A DNA stretch of 64,000 bases from Octopus vulgaris (lineage: Eukaryota), in NCBI GenBank assembly GCA_951406725.2, contig OX597823.1:87606001-87670000 (forward strand). Reading direction: 5' to 3'. The notes beneath the pieces are model-generated. The model was not told where the DNA came from. It ran no database searches and was given only the letters and a program-made list of their open reading frames with translations. Shown piece by piece: positions 28,472-45,090 of this stretch. The translations under genes and the position numbers were made by a program. The number at the start of each line of letters is the position of its first letter. Position 1 is the stretch's first letter.

Positions 28472-28666
28472 TATTTCTTTATTGCCCACAAGGGGCTAAA
28501 CATAGAGGGGACAAAAAGGACAGACAAAGGAATTAAGTCGATTATATCGACCCCAGTGCGTAACTGGTAGTTATTTAATCGACCACAAAAGGATGAAAGG
28601 CTAAGTCGACCTCGGCGGAATTTGAACTCAGAAGGCGTTCTAACGATTCTGCCAGCTCACCGCCTT
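28472..28666 (-). mobile_element. SINE family C with internal deletion in the head
   Basis: Family C tail and core; flanked by a similar ACAC(GT)TTAATATTTTGT direct repeat. Confidence 0.85.
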
Positions 28667-28874
28667 AGATTAACACACTTAATATTTTGTGCCTGGAAAA
28701 CATCGTCATCATTCGTGGATTATTCGATCGGTGTATTATTAAACTTCTTCACTACAAACATAATGGTCGTGAATTCAAATTTTTACTATTCCTGAATTTC
28801 TTTACTTCAGTTTACATAACAAATCGGGTCCGTATACTGAAGGCTTAGTACAGTTTATGTCTTAATCCGAATAC

Positions 28875-29263
28875 TCTTTTACTTGTTCCAGTCCTTTGAC
28901 TGCGGCCATGATGGAGCACCGCATTTCATCGAGCAAATCGACCACAGGACTTATTCTTTATGAGCCTATTACTTATTCTATCGGTCTCTAAGGCCGAACC
29001 GCTAAGTTATGGTGACGTAAACACACAATCACTGATTGTCAAATGATGTTGGGTTGACAAACTCAGACACACTAACATGTATACATATATATACATATAT
29101 ATGACGGCTTCTTCCAGTTTCCGTCAACCAAATGCACTAACAAGGCTTCGATCGTTCCGAGGCTATAGTAGAAGACATTTGCTCAATGTGCCACGCAGTG
29201 AGACTGAACCCAGAACAATGTGGTTGGTAAGCAAGCTACTTACCACACAGCCACTTCTGCGCA
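28875..29263 (-). mobile_element. SINE family A
   Basis: Colinear reverse complement of family A. Confidence 0.88.
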
Positions 29264-29744
29264 TCAATAGAGAGAGAGAGAAGATGGAGAGATTCATCTC
29301 CAAATCGAATATCTAGCCTGAATAAATGCAACACAGTGTACGACAACTGAGACCTCTAAAGACTTGATAAAGAGGATAAATCAAGCAACGGTTAAGTATG
29401 TCATTCAATTAAGCCACGGTGGAATTTGTCCAAAAATTTAAAAGACACGTAAAAAGATGAAGCAAAGCACTACATCAATTGCTCGAACGATACAACATGT
29501 CTACTACACAAGTTTATTTATATAGATACCTAGTGGTAATTCTTTTCATCAATTCTGGAAGTATAAACGATAAACGTTATTTCGGTTGTTTTCTTTTTAA
29601 AAACTTGGAATACAAAGAACTTGTTCAGTTACCTAAATGTATTTTGTCTAACTCTCCACCTACTTTGGGAAGGTATTTTAGGTATACAAGATGGTCCATA
29701 TATACACTGATTAGAGATTCCAGTCTTCTTCTCTTACTTATTCG

Positions 29745-30090
29745 TTTACTTGTCTCAATCATTAGACTGCGGTCATACTGGGGCACCGCCTCGAAGAAAT
29801 TTAGTCGAACGAATTGACACCTGCACTTATTTTTTTAAACTTCTTACTTATTCTCTCGGTTTCTTTCGCCGAGACGCTAAGTTATGGGGACGTAAGCACA
29901 CTAACAACGGTTGTCACGTCGTAGTGGGGGACACACATATACACAAAAACGAAGAGCAACTGTCAGTTTATCTCTATCAATTCGACCCACAAGGCTTTGG
30001 TGGGCCCGAGACGTTTGGACCAAGGTGCCCATCAGTGGCACTGAATCCGCAACCATGTGGTTGTGAAGCAAACTTCTTGGCACATATCTT
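29745..30090 (-). mobile_element. SINE family A (older)
   Basis: Colinear, diverged. Confidence 0.8.
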
Positions 30091-31146
30091 ACACTTGTTG
30101 AATATTTGTAAATAAGTTTCCCAGTCTGAAGACAACATAAGGATAGAGATATTTCCTCTTCCTCTCACCTGTCTGGGAAACCATGGAGTTTTTCTCCAAC
30201 CCCGTCTAATTCAGAAAAAAAGCTCATTATGGTAGGTGAAAATATATTTACATAAACAAATAAAGCATTAATATGGATTTACTAAATACATTTTGCACAT
30301 CACATAGAGTAAGTAATTGAATGCATTTTACTACATATTACAGCGACTAAGACCTGAAAAGAATCGGTTGCTATATAAATATATTAAATATATTTCATTT
30401 ACCTCTAATTTTTGTATGATTTTGTATGGCTATATATTTCTGCTTATATTACATACCATTCATCATGTATCGGGTTTTATGCTTTGACTAACACGTATAC
30501 TATCCAGCATATATACATTATCACCTACAAAAGAAAATTATGAAAAAAAAAATTTGGTTGATAGAGAAATATATATGAATTATTTATTGCGTTGTTTAGT
30601 GAACGTTAATAAAATATTTTGACTTCCTAACAACTACAGGTCCTCCTGAGAGTCCAGAAAGACAAAATATTAAACAAGCCATTGAGATAAAAGCGAAAAT
30701 GCTTAATGTTTTGTAAGCTGGATGTACTGAAAGGATGGTGGTTTATTTTTGATAGTGGTGAAGTTTAACTTGCTCAGTTCAAGTGTGATGATTGGAATTA
30801 GATTAAACGATATTCAAGTGCGTTGCAAATTTTTCTTGTAGATATTTCGGATCGACGTGTGTGAAACCACACAAACACACACACACATACAAACATGTGA
30901 TTATATATATTTATGTGTATATATATACTATTGAAACTTACGTACCATGTACAGGAAACTTTTTTAACACTTCTATCCACCACTTTCCTCGAATATTGGA
31001 GCTGCAACGACAATATCTTTACATATTGTATATTTTTACTTCTACTTTCATTCTCTTATTTCCCTCTATATTCCCTATCTCATCCTTCTCCATAATAATT
31101 CCTTATTTCGACCTCAAATATCTACCTCTGTTTAACCATCTCGCAT

Positions 31147-31196
31147 CATCTCTGATGAAGGGACATCCATAATATCCCAGAAACAGCTGTAAAAAT
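31147..31196 (+). ncRNA. Minimal type I hammerhead ribozyme motif (stem I decayed)
   Basis: CUGAUGA(31152)-A-GGGA..UCCC-A-GAAAC-AGCU-GUA; intact catalytic core, palindromic ACAGCUGU stem III. Confidence 0.65.
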
Positions 31197-31294
31197 ATAT
31201 CTATAACTTTTTCCTTATAAACGTCCTGAAAACTCCTCACAGCCTTGGCTTTGTTATCTCATTTCGTCCAACATACATGTATTTATATGTATGC

Positions 31295-31382
<88 letters not shown>

Positions 31383-31506
31383 GTTGAATGAATTATCTTA
31401 GTATGGATAATTCGGTTAACCGATACCTGGGTAGCAAATTCACGTCAGAAAAACACTAAGGAAAACACTAAAAACAATAAGAATCGTCGTTCAACTCCAT
31501 TCTTTC

Positions 31507-31557
<51 letters not shown>

Positions 31558-31710
31558 ATGGGGGTTTAGTTCAAAGATGATCTAAACGATTAGGTATGGT
31601 AACGGATTACTAGTGCTCCAAGGTTATCACCGAGACAGTGGTTATGAAGCCATTTCAAATTTCCGATGCAGCGGATATATAATTGTTAAAGAGGACAACA
31701 AACATTAAGG

Positions 31711-32365
31711 GAAAGCAAACATCTCAAGTCGTATACAATATTAAGACTGGAAAATATTTAAAGTTTTACAGCTGTTTCCTGGATATCTCCGAGTATGGGA
31801 TATTCCGTCATCAGAGACAAATAGGGAAAATGAGAATGGTATATATTAATAAGATGACGGCATAGAGGTAGGGAGTAAAAGAATAAGGAAATGGAAAGAA
31901 AGAAGAAAAAAGCATTAGAATTTCATACTTCAACTTCCGAAGTTATTGAAGCAAAAGCATAAATCCTTAGCTGCAATCCAGCGTAGATCCATGAGCGTAA
32001 CTCTTTAGATGCAACCCTGCGTGGATCTATGTGGATTAAAATCCTTATATAGTAGGCATTCAAAGAAAAAAGACGCGAAAATATCAACGTCCAATAACAG
32101 AATGGTAGCGGAGGTGGCTATTAGGTGGTAAACGGAAGGAAAAGGAAAGGAATAGAGAGGAAGATAGAGTGAGGTGGGGATTTAAGGATTGGCTATAGGA
32201 TAAGGTAAGGTGTATAGGTAGGTGCATGGTGTCTAAGAATTGTGTACCTTTCCCTATTTGTCTATGATAACGAATATCACATGCTCGGGATATCCCAGAA
32301 ACAGCAGTAAGACTTAATTATTTTTCAATAATAATATTGTATAAGACTTGAGATATTTGCCTTGC
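31711..32365. mobile_element. Penelope-like non-autonomous element with inverted, ribozyme-bearing ~115 bp arms
   Basis: 31711-31830 is the diverged reverse complement of 32249-32365 (TTTCCCTATTTGTCT...AATATTGTATA.GACTTGAGAT.TTTGC); each arm carries a hammerhead motif, and the right one has a mutated core. Confidence 0.7.
31763..31818 (-). ncRNA. Minimal type I hammerhead ribozyme motif in the left arm of an inverted repeat
   Basis: Minus strand GUCU-CUGAUGA-CGGAAUAUC..GAUAUCCAG-GAAAC-AGCU-GUA-AAAC. Confidence 0.7.
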
Positions 32366-32444
32366 ATTAATGCCTGTTGTCCTCTTTAACAATTACAGAC
32401 ACACGCACGCACACGCATACACACACACACACACACACACACAT

Positions 32445-32489
<45 letters not shown>

Positions 32490-32562
32490 CAAGTATACAT
32501 ATATACATATATAAGTAAATGAAAGAATGGAGTCGAACGAAGATTTTAACAAAATTCCTTTA

Positions 32563-32645
32563 CTCTCAACACATGTTTCGAAGACTGCATACTCTTAATT
32601 CCGAAGGAATAAAGGGGGCATTATGCCGTCTTCTCATCAGGAAAG
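32563..32645 (-). ncRNA. Type I hammerhead ribozyme with long stem II
   Basis: Minus strand CUUUC-CUGAUGA-GAAGAC(G)GCAUA...UAUGC(A)GUCUUC-GAAAC-AUGU-GUU-GAGAG; all three stems pair and the core is intact. Confidence 0.8.
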
Positions 32646-33069
32646 ACAAGGAACCTCTATCAGCCTCAAGACGAACAAAATTTTTTTTATGACTGCCTAC
32701 ATGGTGTCCACAATGGTAATGAGCGTTTTTTTTAAAAATCCGTTATAAGCAATGACGTCAAAATTGGTTGGAAGTGGGAAGTTCTGAAAATAAGAAGGGG
32801 ACAGTATGTATGCTGTATGTATGGGGATGCGCGGGTGTTTGCTCTTGTTAATGAGTTTGATTGTTTATGTGTGTGTATGAGTGTGTGTATATAACTGCAT
32901 TTGTGTCTATGTGTGTGTGTGTGTAATTGTGTGTGTGGTGGGGACAATTGTCAAATATATTTAGTAGTGAGGTGACAAATTTGTGTCTGTGTGTTTGATT
33001 GAGCGTATGATAGAGAGAGAGAGAGAGAGGGGGAGAGGTAGAGAGGAAGAGATAAACATACCCCAGTGA

Positions 33070-33480
33070 TATTTAGTAGCATTGTTTCATGCAACGGAGT
33101 AGACATAAAAGAATTTGTCTATGTCAGTGGTGTAGACGTGAAACTAATTATTAAAACCAAAGAGGTTATCTATATTATCTATCATTCATATGAGTGGAAA
33201 GTGTGTTGTTGCCAATGCTTACATTTATATGATTTTTCTATTAATGTGTTAACCAACGGGAACTTGGCGAAAAGGATATAGAAGAGTTCGGAATTAGAAA
33301 TGCCACAATATTTCCTGCCCTTATCAAAATTTTATCCCTAATTAGTGGTTTGGACTTTAGCTGTTCCTTCCAGCGTAAGGAAGTCCTATGACGGACACCT
33401 CTTATGTGTTTAAATGTACACTGTATGGTGAGCATGATTACTACAGGAGTAAGAGTAAGGTCTGCGTCCAAATGACTATG
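33070..33480 (-). mobile_element. Decayed GIY-YIG endonuclease relic of a Penelope-like element
   Basis: ORF 33241-33471 VVIMLTIQCTFKHIRGVRHRTSLRWKEQL resembles the PLE GIY-YIG pattern VVY.I.C..C...YIG.T.R.L..R..EH; lies upstream of the 32563-32645 hammerhead on the same strand. Confidence 0.5.
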
Positions 33481-36699: not shown

Positions 36700-37733
36700 T
36701 TTCTTCTTCTTTCAAATTTGCTTCCATTTTCTTGCCGAGTGTCTTCCCGACTCCTAGGGCAAAGAAACTCATAGTATACATTGGTAGGCCATTAAACCAA
36801 ACTCAGTAGTTCGTTCATTTTTTTTTTTTTAAGTTAAATTAAAATACATGAGCAGCAACAGTTCTCACATCGACAATGCTCTTCTCAATACGTGTGATGT
36901 ACCAATTAAGACAATCTTTTGCACTTCTTGCAGGGATGGTAAGCCAGGGATCATTCTCATATAATTTTCGGTTCCCTTCTTGATCATTCCTAGTGCTCCT
37001 ACGATCACTGGTATTGTAACCGCCTTGAGATGCCACATTTTCTCAATTTCAATGAGTAGGTCTTTATATTTTCTGAGCTTGTCAAACTCTTTCGCTGAGA
37101 TATTATGATCACAGGGGATGCTCATGTCGATCAATAAGCAAACTTTATTGTTTTGGTCTTTCACAACAATATCTGGTTTATTGACCTTGAGCAGCCAGGA
37201 TGAAACCTTCGCTCTCTGCTTTTAGCCCTGAGCTCCGTAGCCACTGATGGGTTTGCTTCTGGTCAACATCAGCTTGTTTGCTGCGGGTCACATATTTGCC
37301 GTGCAGAGGTTTCTCCACCCACCTATCAGCCAGTTGCTCGTGCGCTTTTTTCATTGCCATCATTTTCACCTTCTTTGCAACAATAGTTGCCGTACTTCCC
37401 TCGGGTTGTTCAGTTTGGGTATCCTGCACGAGATCAATAGCAAATTTTTTGCTTTCATTTATTATAGAATGAAGCTTCTTTCGTCTCTCGTGATTTTTCA
37501 CGAGCTTTAGCATCCAGTCATTCGATATTTCGAGATATTTGGCCAGTCCAATTGTGGTTGTTTTGTAAGCTAGTTCAAATTGGATCAGGCCTCGACCTCC
37601 TTGGGCTCTGGGAAGGTAAAGGCGATCTACGTCTGCCTTTGGGTGGTGCATCCTATTACAACTCAGCAGCTTGCGTATTTTCCTATCTATATTCTTTACT
37701 TCACTCATATTCCAGTTCAGCACATTGTAGCTA
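36699..37733 (-). mobile_element. R4/Dong-clade non-LTR retrotransposon 3' fragment (subfamily 1, internally deleted)
   Basis: ORFs 37178-37723 (HHPKADVDRLYLPRAQGGRGL, KPLHGKY, LKAESEGFILAAQ) and 36865-37164 (LLIDMSIP..N...KEFDKLRKYKDL; IPVIVGALG), preceded by KPDIVV; flanked by (ATT)n. Confidence 0.9.
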
Positions 37734-37767
<34 letters not shown>

Positions 37768-37770
<3 letters not shown>

Positions 37771-39238
37771 TAGTTTTATTTTTATTTTTATAGCGTGCTT
37801 TCACTTCACTACCGAGCGCAGCTCTGTGTGCCTTGGGTATGTGCTGTGATTTGTTGTGATGGTTATTGTATGGAAAGTGTTCTGCGTAGGATGTGTGCAG
37901 TGCCTAGTAGTGCAATTTTCTGTATGTTATATGTGTTTGTAAGTCCTGGTGTTTTTGTTATGTATTTGTCTGAATATTTTTTTATCATGCCTAATGCACC
38001 TACTATGATAGGAATTGTTTCTGTTTTCAGATTCCACATTCTAGTTACCTCTATTTCCAGGTCTTTGTATTTTGAGAGTTTCTCCATTTCTTTTAGAGAC
38101 ACGTTGTCATCTGCCGGTACTGATACATCAATTAGAAAGCATTTTTTTCTTCATGGTCTCTGACAACTATATCTGGTCTGTTGGCCTTAATTTCTCTATC
38201 TGTGTGTATCGGCATATCCCAGAGTATGGTTGCTTTCTCGTTTTCTGTGACCTTTTCTGGTGTGTGCCTATACCATCTTTTTTCTGTTGTTATTCCATAA
38301 TGTTGGCATAGCTTCCAATGTATGTAAGTTCCAACTCTGTCATGTCTGTGAATATATTCCTTCTTAGCCAGGACTGGGCAGCTAGAGATAATATGATTTA
38401 TTGTTTCTGGTCCATCTCCACATATTCTGCAGTTACTTGTAATATTTCTTTTCATTACATGTTTTTGGTAATTTCTGGTGGGGAGGCTTTGGTCTTGTGC
38501 TGCAATTAAAAATCCCTCTGTTTCTGCTTTGAGTCCTGAGCTTCTCAACCATTGCTGGGATTTTTCTTTGTCTATTTCTTTTGCGTTTAGTTTAGTCCAG
38601 TATTTACCATGAAGGGGCTTTTCTTGCCATCGTTTTATCATGGTTCGTTGCTGTTCTATTTTTAGTTTGGATTTCATTTTTTTTATAGCTTTTGTTGTTT
38701 CTTCATCTTCTTCTTCTTCATGTTTATTAGGTGGTATGATTTCTTGTTTGTATTTGTCAGCTTCCTTAAATACTGAGAACAGTTTTTTGTTTTGCTCGTG
38801 TTTTGCCGCTATCTGGATCAGTTTTCCTTCCTTCTGAAGTAGATATTTTTGCAGTCCTATGGTGGTTATTTTATAGTAGTTTTCCAGCTGTATAAGGCCT
38901 CTACCACCTTCTATACGTTGTATATATAGTCTTTCTATGTCAGATTTTGGGTGATGCATCCTAGATCCTGTCATTATTTTTCTTGTTTTCCTGTCTATTT
39001 TGGTCAGTTCATTTCGTGTCCAGTTAAGGATATTGTAGCTGTAACTTATAACTGGGACAGCTAAAGTGTTGATACCTATTATCTTGTTTTTAGCATTGAG
39101 CTCTGTGTTTAGTATTGATCTAACTCGTCTATAATATTCTTTTTTTATTTTCTCTTTCATTTGTGTGTGTTGTGTCTTATCTAGTTCATGGACTCCTAAG
39201 TATTTGTAAGTTTGGCTTTGGTCTAATTCTTTTATTTC
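37768..39238 (-). mobile_element. R4/Dong-clade non-LTR retrotransposon 3' fragment (subfamily 2): RT C-terminus, CCHC knuckle and RLE endonuclease, one frameshift
   Basis: YKYLG upstream of ORF 38132-39160; CRICGDGPETINHIISSC, RHDRV, RPDIVV; ORF 37863-38102 KEMEKLSKYKDL; (ATT)n on both sides. Confidence 0.93.
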
Positions 39239-42509: not shown

Positions 42510-43450
42510 TCGAAAGAGCGAATCGTGTCGTTCGCGAAAAGAGACTCAATAGAAAGAAGCGTTGTAGATACTCTACTAAGCACGTCACTCCGAAAGTTAA
42601 GTCGAGTCGTATGTGAGAGATCCTTTTCGTCTCGATTTCCTCGAACAAGTCTGGCGGGAGGTCGAGGACGACAGCTCGGCCGCCGCTGCTGAAGCCCCAG
42701 GATGGCAATTGTGCCGGTGACGTAACCGCTTGCCGCGCGGGCGCGACCAATGAACAGGGAACGCCGAGCTGAGGCATGCTCCTTTTGATTGATACACTTT
42801 TGGAAAACAACTCAGGTCGGGCAACGGTTCCGGCTTAGTGTTGCTCAGCCGTTATCGCGCACAGGCAGACTGGCACCACCACTCTAACGAGCGAGTGTGA
42901 AAACCGTTGCTCTGACTGGGTTGATAGCCATAGCCGAGTTGACGTTGACCGCGCCTGCCCAAATTCAGCAGAGGCGTCAGCGACAGCGATGGACGATGAG
43001 CGTACGCGAAATGCATGGCTAGGATAACTCTAACCTATCTCACGTCTGTCTAAACCTGGCTCATGGTCTCTGCTTCGCAATGATAATAATTCTGCTTCCC
43101 AATAAGAAGGGCCGGCATCGAAGGAACAAAAAGCGACGTGGCTGCGAACGCTTGACTAACATAAGCCAGTTATCCCTGTGGTAACCTTTCTGACACCTCT
43201 TCACGGATGCATAGCTTGACTGGCGCTGTTCGGGAAGGATAGATGGGCCACGCTTTTGCGGTCCGTATCCGTACTGAAAATCGAGCCCGAGCGAGATTTT
43301 GCCCTTTTGCACCATGTGTGGTTTCCGTCCACGCTGAGCTCACTGCGTTACGGTTTGATAGAAATACCACCCCAGTGAACCGAGCCGACAGACTAAAGGT
43401 CGCGCATCGGCTACGTCCGTGCCCACAGTGGCGTTCGACATGCACTGCTC
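42510..43450 (-). pseudogene. Highly diverged 28S (LSU) rRNA 3'-end fragment (rDNA orphon/pseudogene)
   Basis: Reverse complements of conserved LSU blocks in correct order: CTCAATAGA..GCG..GTAG..ACTCTACT (3' end), GGCTTAG..TCAGCCGTTATC, CTAACCTATCTCACG..TCTAAACC, CATCGAAGG.ACAAAAAGCGACGT..GAACGCTTG..AAGCCAGTTATCCCTGTGGTAAC.TTTCTGACACCTCT, GTACTGAAAATC..TTTTGCCCTTTTG, CTGCGTTAC..TACCACCCCAGT. Confidence 0.85.
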
Positions 43451-44640: not shown

Positions 44641-45090
44641 AAAACACACGCGCACACACATACACACACATATATATGTGTGTGCGAAATCGCACATATA
44701 TGTATGTTTGGCTTAGTGGTTAGGGCATTCTGTTGAGCAAGATACTTTATTTCAAATTGCTCCAGTCCACTCAGCTGGCAAAAATGTGTTGTAACTGTAT
44801 TTCAACAAGGGCCAGACTTGACACAAAAACAAAAACATGGAAACGAACTTTTTTTCAAGCAACGAAAAAGCAGAGTACAAGACATAAAACACAAGGAATA
44901 TTCCCCTTCTTCAGTTGTCCCTGTTTCGTCTACTCCGCGTTTGGAAGGTAAGGACAAGACGCGACTTCGTTGAAACAGTCCTTCCCGGAAAGCAAATTAA
45001 ATAAAATTCGAGATTTTTTCCGGAGGGGTAAAAGTGTTAACAAATACATATAGATGTAGGTATGCACATATATGTATGTACATATGCATA

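Follow-up and report, generated by a model that had tools for sequence, protein, structure and literature searches.

The window analysed here, 64 kb from a microsatellite-rich host genome of 2.8 Gb, contains a run of abutting repeat insertions and tracts of alternating dinucleotides (Table 1), in which four hammerhead motifs (H1-H4) are embedded. The initial annotation had placed four such motifs between 31147 and 32645, and the cores and GAAA boxes of all four are indeed there. It ascribed them to at least two families; we now distinguish three, with H2 and H3 in family A, H4 in family B and H1 in family C. H2 and H3 lie one in each arm of a single inverted family A insertion, with no microsatellite between them, and the proposed separation of all blocks by (TA)n or (CA)n tracts holds for the tracts listed in Table 1 and breaks down at this pair.

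The mini family B insertion is two-armed and measures 130 nt overall, and the family C piece is matched across its span by 29 other loci at 84-90%. Family D, the fourth high-copy family, is represented next to the family B element by an end piece; other copies of it carry a hammerhead of their own further upstream. A possible fifth hammerhead at 33340-33400, inside this family D end, was rejected as a plain hairpin. At the joint between the 5' end of B and the short end of D (33324-33329) a few bases are shared, and the joint may represent either a template switch between the two families or a later deletion. The ends of families A to D have no further occurrence within the 64 kb of the window. 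The best identity to other copies is 81-89% for the A and C pieces and 96-99% for the B and D pieces, and from this closer identity we judge that B and D were likely inserted after A and C.

Table 1. Features of the insertion cluster, in window coordinates.
Feature	Position	Strand	Remarks
Family C Penelope-like element (PLE), 5'-truncated 3' end	30926..31270	+	stops at the family short end
H1, family C type I hammerhead	31148..31195	+	core 31152-31158; GAAA at 31180; GUA ending 31191
(TA)n tract	31280..31379		between family C and mini family B insertion
Mini family B insertion, long-end arm	31379..31452	-	tail only, +135 to +208 from cut site
Repetitive filler inside mini family B insertion	31453-31481		no alignment to reference
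Mini family B insertion, inverted short-end arm	31482..31510	+	
(TA)22 tract	31510..31553		
Family A insertion, long-end arm	31554..32247	-	3' UTR, hammerhead, about 120-nt tail
H2, family A hammerhead	31763..31818	-	core 31814-31808; GUA ending 31767
Family A insertion, inverted short-end arm	32249..32395	+	84.7% identical to long arm over 150 nt
H3, family A hammerhead	32260..32313	+	core position 32264-32270
(CA)n then (TA)n tract	32395..32513		
Family B element, 5'-truncated	32514..33329	-	short end at about 32514
H4, family B type I hammerhead	32563..32645	-	intact; core 32640-32634; GUU ending 32568
Family B GIY-YIG endonuclease, last 48 codons	33185..33328	-	CxxC, CxH; E 1e-23 against L130 protein
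Family D end piece, 100 nt	33327..33426	+	back to back with 5' end of B

State and abundance of the hammerheads

Within the window, a type I descriptor accepts H4 only, rejecting H1-H3, and it finds no match in 30 shuffles of the window. H4 has a stem I of CUUUC/GAGAG, a 54-nt stem II region, a G10.1-C11.1 pair and a stem III with the loop ACAUGUGU, and its cut site is predicted after the GUU ending at 32568. The cores of H1 and H2 are intact, with stem I broken in the former (ATCT/AAAA, with A.A at 10.1-11.1) and damaged in the latter (GTCT/AAAC, with one altered base in stem II). The core of H3 is broken, reading AUGAUAA with C3 and G8 changed, and its stem III is ACAGCAGU. The CUGANGA, GAAA and NUH elements stand in type I order in H1, H2, H4 and the three family majorities, and do not in H3. 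We regard the copies in the window as probably inert fossils, of which H4 alone is predicted to be able to cut.

Minimum-energy folds of H1-H3 do not give the hammerhead fold, and folding-energy z values range from -0.2 to -2.0, so that folding energy alone cannot tell these motifs from chance. That they exceed chance is indicated by the families to which they belong, since in alignments of 38 (A), 26 (B) and 28 (C) genomic copies the majority sequence of each family has the full core and stems, since exact 22-mers occur genome-wide 1222 times (A/C) and 4572 times (B) against no match for a reversed control, and since the shuffles are empty. Dispersed repeats lie behind all three, with 1751, 2109 and 2202 first-look candidates. 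Covariation across genomic copies, which had been proposed as a check of the fold, is seen in 14 B-type rows, where 8 of 27 pairs, located in stems I and II, have both of their bases altered; none of 500 shuffles reached as high, a number that is not a probability because the rows were hand-picked for diversity and are related to one another. The stem III pairs of family B are invariant.

The earlier attempt to combine the copies into one canonical fold succeeds for stem I (GUCU/AGAC) and stem III (ACAGCUGU), which A and C have in common, and fails at 10.1-11.1, which is mismatched in the majority of both. These positions read A.A in family C (28/28 A and 27/28 A) and C.A or U.A in family A (22 C and 13 T of 38; 34/38 A), and are paired in family B (26/26 G, 25/26 C). 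The hammerheads of A and C have one unpaired base on each side of stem II, the sequence of which differs between the two families with its pairing kept. The identification of type I hammerheads with palindromic stem III, as in PLEs, was borne out. Rfam, suggested at the outset as a means of detection, misses these very abundant hammerheads: no hammerhead family stood among the matches listed for the whole window (150 of 162), and searches of three sub-regions at E up to 10 likewise matched none.

Could the cluster be a functional unit, in which a host transcript uses the hammerheads (H1 with H3 or H2 with H4, in trans or as a dimer) for regulated cleavage? Each strand does carry two motifs within 1.2 kb, and the perfect palindrome ACAGCUGU is predicted to form a duplex of -11.1 kcal/mol. 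However, H3 is without C3 and G8, H1 and H2 are without stem I, the stem III loops of H2 and H4 differ, and the core of family C decays at the rate of its neighbouring positions (0.050 versus 0.056). We consider such a unit very improbable.

The density of the motifs is itself unexceptional. A relaxed descriptor gave 24 matches in 40 arbitrary 10-kb stretches (400 kb), where 20 shuffles averaged 0.9; seven of the 24 belong to one tandem array, and grouping by eye reduces them to about 15 loci, equivalent by extrapolation to some 100,000 insertions genome-wide. With hammerheads so common, a 1.5-kb cluster is not rare, and a rough Poisson estimate made by hand puts the number of 1.5-kb intervals with three insertions by chance at hundreds, or at least many dozens, with still more expected given the shared target. 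Matches to other families near anchors number 5 in 337 kb versus 1 in 400 kb, a weak excess (about p 0.07 by hand). The local pile-up of retroelements first reported is real, the abutting layout suggests reuse of one TA tract, and separate insertions into one and the same repeat likely built up the cluster. As such it is ordinary for this genome and of modest mechanistic value.

Several other features lie in the window. At 44880-44990 (minus strand) the hammerhead words are reordered, with GAAAC ahead of CUGAAGA and a complementary CUGUUUC upstream. A decayed fragment from the 3' part of 28S rRNA occupies 42520-43416 (minus strand; 216 bits), and 28472-30084 holds several short dispersed repeat copies, probably SINEs, that recur in many loci. 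Two related pieces with open frames lie at 36865-38150 (minus strand); Pfam gave no match to these frames, which we take to resemble the C-terminal part of a restriction-like-endonuclease non-LTR element.

Protein-coding parent elements

When family B copies were walked upstream, they opened into a GIY-YIG endonuclease (EN), the link between family and endonuclease being given by the open EN frame of locus L057. Remnants of EN were found with family A (L014, L018) and family C (L084, L089), and translations of linker and EN were recovered for both. Family A has reverse transcriptase (RT) matches on the element strand at L160 and L162, its RT and EN pieces being broken; in family C, thumb, linker and GIY-YIG are tied to the element in longer copies, and no RT core is tied to it in the loci examined. 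A protein search with 16701 first-look candidates, 150 of which were scored, revealed for family B a single frame with RT followed by GIY-YIG at L130, L131 and L133. L130 is a full family B element with an 883-codon RT-EN frame interrupted by one TAG, and comprises, in order, an inverted short arm, a partial pLTR that begins 39 nt before the cut site, a tail, the frame, the 3' UTR, the hammerhead, a tail and (TA)n. It thereby has the terminal features of a PLE, namely a partial tandem pLTR, an inverted 5'-truncated partner and a tail at one end. Four presumed-RNA contig sets cover the element, mostly at its ends, in the form of contigs from which strand, ends and circles are not readable. Pfam detected no RT and no GIY-YIG in the B proteins, and a PDB sequence search with a profile alignment gave no match, and thus no solved structure. 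The best named homolog is an Argonauta protein, which together with the repeat content would fit an octopus-like genome.

Among shared variants of family B, pN/pS is 0.17 for EN (39 rows) and 0.07 for RT (12 rows); among singletons it is 0.84 and 0.36, respectively. Judged by these ratios, the coding sequence of family B is under purifying selection. The origin of the motifs in retroelements was correctly recognised from the start; the label "non-autonomous" has to be given up, since all three families join endonuclease-coding sequence and B joins a full, selected RT-EN frame.

This bears directly on a retrozyme reading, under which the motifs would be small, non-autonomous and non-coding units that cleave themselves, form circles and depend on copying in trans. 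No long frame exists in the window, one close direct pair occurs among the 100 A/C matches listed, and a genuine, retrozyme-like tandem array is found elsewhere in the genome (L188:2300-4520, two-armed, with seven identical hammerheads at a spacing of about 359 nt). Known animal non-LTR retrozymes also resemble the present families in their type I hammerhead, low GC, high copy number and connection to PLEs (Cervera and de la Peña, 2020, PMC7229834; Li et al., 10.64898/2026.07.22.740005); they are, however, non-coding tandem units of 150-450 bp, whereas we are dealing with non-tandem ends of coding elements. None of the copies in the window is tandem or forms a non-coding tandem unit, the 5' ends of family B are scattered from -4 to -1097 relative to the cut site, all three families continue into endonuclease sequence, and family B bears the mark of purifying selection noted above. 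For family B the retrozyme reading is already largely refuted by L130, and overall we deem it highly unlikely. Because longer copies reach the endonuclease and B has a full RT-EN frame, we read the insertions as 5'-truncated PLEs.

The closest relatives of these PLEs appear to lie in the Hydra clade. Family B carries IRW, DKT, FDVLMGSTDSAQIADLVG, GLYRDD and CxxC and CxH around E and N, no CCHH, and a divergent RT4(B) like that of the Hydra clade; CxxC and CxH also occur in families A and C. By eye, the B protein aligns with the Hydra rows and not the Neptune rows of the supplement to Craig et al. (2021; PMC8557442). The likeness to the clade as characterised there extends to the single RT-EN frame, RW and DKT, divergent RT4(B), CxxC/CxH and lack of CCHH, and also to a canonical hammerhead at the 3' end, insertion into (TA)n, truncation at the 5' end, an inverted 5'-truncated partner and a one-end tail. 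Mismatches at 10.1-11.1 are likewise found in its table of Hydra-clade hammerheads (U.U in many Penelope_HM rows, C.A in PLE-X1_cBra). We therefore favour with strong confidence an explanation in which the motifs are type I hammerheads in the 5'-truncated 3' ends of three PLE families with Hydra-clade motifs, set in neighbouring TA-rich microsatellites; that A-C would be Hydra-type Penelope-like elements is part of this explanation, the clade resting on motifs compared by eye.

The suggestion of a poorly described family is not supported: the clade and its preference for TA have been published, as has a hammerhead-bearing octopus member, Hydra-1_Obim, which targets (TA)n and has a different hammerhead (Craig et al., 2021; PMC8557442). 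Families A, B and C have no match by eye to this published octopus family, and they differ from Hydra-1_Obim in hammerhead sequence and in a visibly divergent protein. Set against the Hydra elements described in that work, tails are about 120-145 nt instead of 30-40, the linker is swollen by Asn/Thr-rich low-complexity sequence, and family B elements are about 3.5 kb in place of under 3 kb, with no CxCX5C linker motif and with the 54-nt stem II region. Triplet microsatellites coding for Asn/Thr runs lie within the ORF in the RT-EN linker of family A (L162, L171, L172) and family C (L145, L153, L156).

The hammerheads also resemble those of metazoan PLEs (Cervera and de la Peña, 2014; PMC4209133) in being type I, with a stem I of 4-5 bp, a long stem II and a palindromic stem III, and in occurring mostly as lone truncated copies or as opposite-strand pairs 100-700 bp apart. 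That work stresses a conserved G10.1-C11.1 and one extra base, whereas in families A and C each side bears an unpaired base; compared with its hammerheads, a stem III is present here, of 2 bp with a 4-nt loop.

A PLE of another clade adjoins a family B copy at L094:4989-7313 (minus strand), with a 775-codon frame matching RVT_1 and GIY-YIG. Duplicated loci, nearly identical and separated by 11 kb to 0.9 Mb (L069/L070, L102/L103, C14:73.4-74.3 Mb), are either recent segmental duplications or assembly duplicates.

Insertion ends and a proposed priming scheme

The association with microsatellites was confirmed, in that insertion ends mostly abut TA or another alternating repeat. Each of families A and B has two fixed 3' ends, a short and a long one, at about +60 and +208 from the cut site in B and about +90 and +213 in A. 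TA or another alternating repeat follows 30/36 long and 23/29 short ends (+60 bin) of B, and 17/20 long and 15/23 short ends (+90 bin) of A. Divergent pairs combine a long with a short end in 21/22 cases for B and 8/8 for A, or 29/30 overall (binomial 3e-8), in a survey of best-match loci, as opposed to a random draw, that omitted 28 loci as overlaps or repeats of others. Pairs within 3 kb, among the 100 matches listed in each case, comprised nine divergent, one direct and no convergent for A/C and 13 divergent and no convergent for B. In all three families the short end falls on a TA-rich stretch within the element.

At the other end, 0/30 family B copies start within 3 nt of the cut site, one starting at -4; these are the first 30 of 423 copies, chosen by pattern downstream of the cut, and include four pairs that are arms of one insertion. 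Since no copy begins at the cut site, the insertion templates would likely have been mostly uncut RNA, and with three of the four motifs in the window damaged as well, "self-cleaving" is no longer an apt description of the copies there. For an Anolis element, an uncut RNA template, two start sites and extension of two strands have been reported in vitro (Frangieh et al., 2024; PMC11167929).

The arms of inverted insertions constrain how they may have formed. In nine tight junctions (from a run with different BLAST settings that recovered 12 pairs) the short arm reaches further 5' in four, the long arm in four, and both equally in one; several further pairs of equal 5' reach occur in the 5'-start sample. 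A model in which inversion arises solely by fold-back from the long arm was rejected, the short arm being the further-reaching in 4/9. With arm reach so mixed, some cases are left uncovered by simple fold-back, and likewise by classical twin priming on a single RNA. That H2 and H3 are instead the terminal inverted repeats of a DNA transposon (MITE) with hammerhead-like words, as inverted arms around a 400-nt centre, flanks resembling a TA target duplication and the many TIR and MITE families listed in an octopus annotation (PMC13282606) might suggest, is scarcely credible, as arm length differs between copies, the outer ends are unlike (long versus short) where fixed symmetrical arms would be the pattern, the 400-nt centre merely continues one arm, and longer copies encode GIY-YIG and not a transposase. 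Truncated two-armed copies can thus pass for MITEs or retrozymes.

Returning to PLE insertion, we propose that the endonuclease of the element would nick both strands of (TA)n, as the DNA footprints suggest. One DNA end would then prime reverse transcription at the distal tail site, and the other, likely through base pairing, at the TA-rich stretch that lies further in on the element RNA; the two truncated cDNAs would be joined back to back, and the TA tract that remains on both sides would offer a target for the next insertion. With the template likely uncut, the ribozyme would act elsewhere in the cycle, in the processing of tandem transcripts, the palindromic stem III probably allowing it to work as a dimer. 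The priming model alone leaves unexplained the frequent overlap of both arms across the hammerhead.

The scheme resembles the in vitro behaviour of the Anolis Poseidon element PAc (Frangieh et al., 2024; PMC11167929), with two RT start sites that define the tail, cutting and extension of both strands, an AT-rich target and an uncut RNA template. In contrast, PAc belongs to another clade, and its start sites lie inside the ORF and share no homology with the target. In the present families the short end coincides with TA-rich sequence of the element, and the long end, in L130, lies upstream of the ORF start.

Family B and the linker zinc finger

Hydra elements have a CxCX5C linker that has been proposed as the basis of TA targeting (Craig et al., 2021; PMC8557442). 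We found this motif in families A and C, and in 110 of the 111 homologs in which EN was called by script (120 were examined, nine being without EN); the lone exception is a 477-residue protein in which the EN call looks false. In family B, the 45 residues ahead of the EN start are free of cysteine in all 26 readable frames (from 40 loci), and an Asn-rich stretch, again without cysteine, stands at the aligned position of the linker motif. Lacking CxCX5C, family B is filed as a Hydra variant.

Family B has no zinc finger, yet its ends still lie in TA repeats. The low pN/pS of shared variants relative to singletons suggests that the linker-less B protein drove its own spread. We therefore put forward, at what we would call even chances, that B is a Hydra-type family in which the zinc finger has been replaced by about 130 Asn-rich residues, which is self-mobilised, which targets (TA)n through GIY-YIG and RNA pairing of the nicked TA strand, and in which each inverted insertion represents two primings on uncut RNA. 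In the portions of the literature on PLEs, hammerheads and octopus covered here, neither a Hydra family without the linker motif nor the long/short end rule is described; Repbase, Dfam and the supplement of PMC13282606 may hold these families.

If this proposal is true, TA targeting would not derive from the zinc finger, contrary to what has been proposed. This genome provides a natural pair with the same target, families A and C with the zinc finger and family B without it, and a near-complete young B frame exists. The use of these elements is hence mechanistic, and lies in how PLEs choose microsatellites and form inverted ends, a question raised by Craig et al. (2021; PMC8557442).
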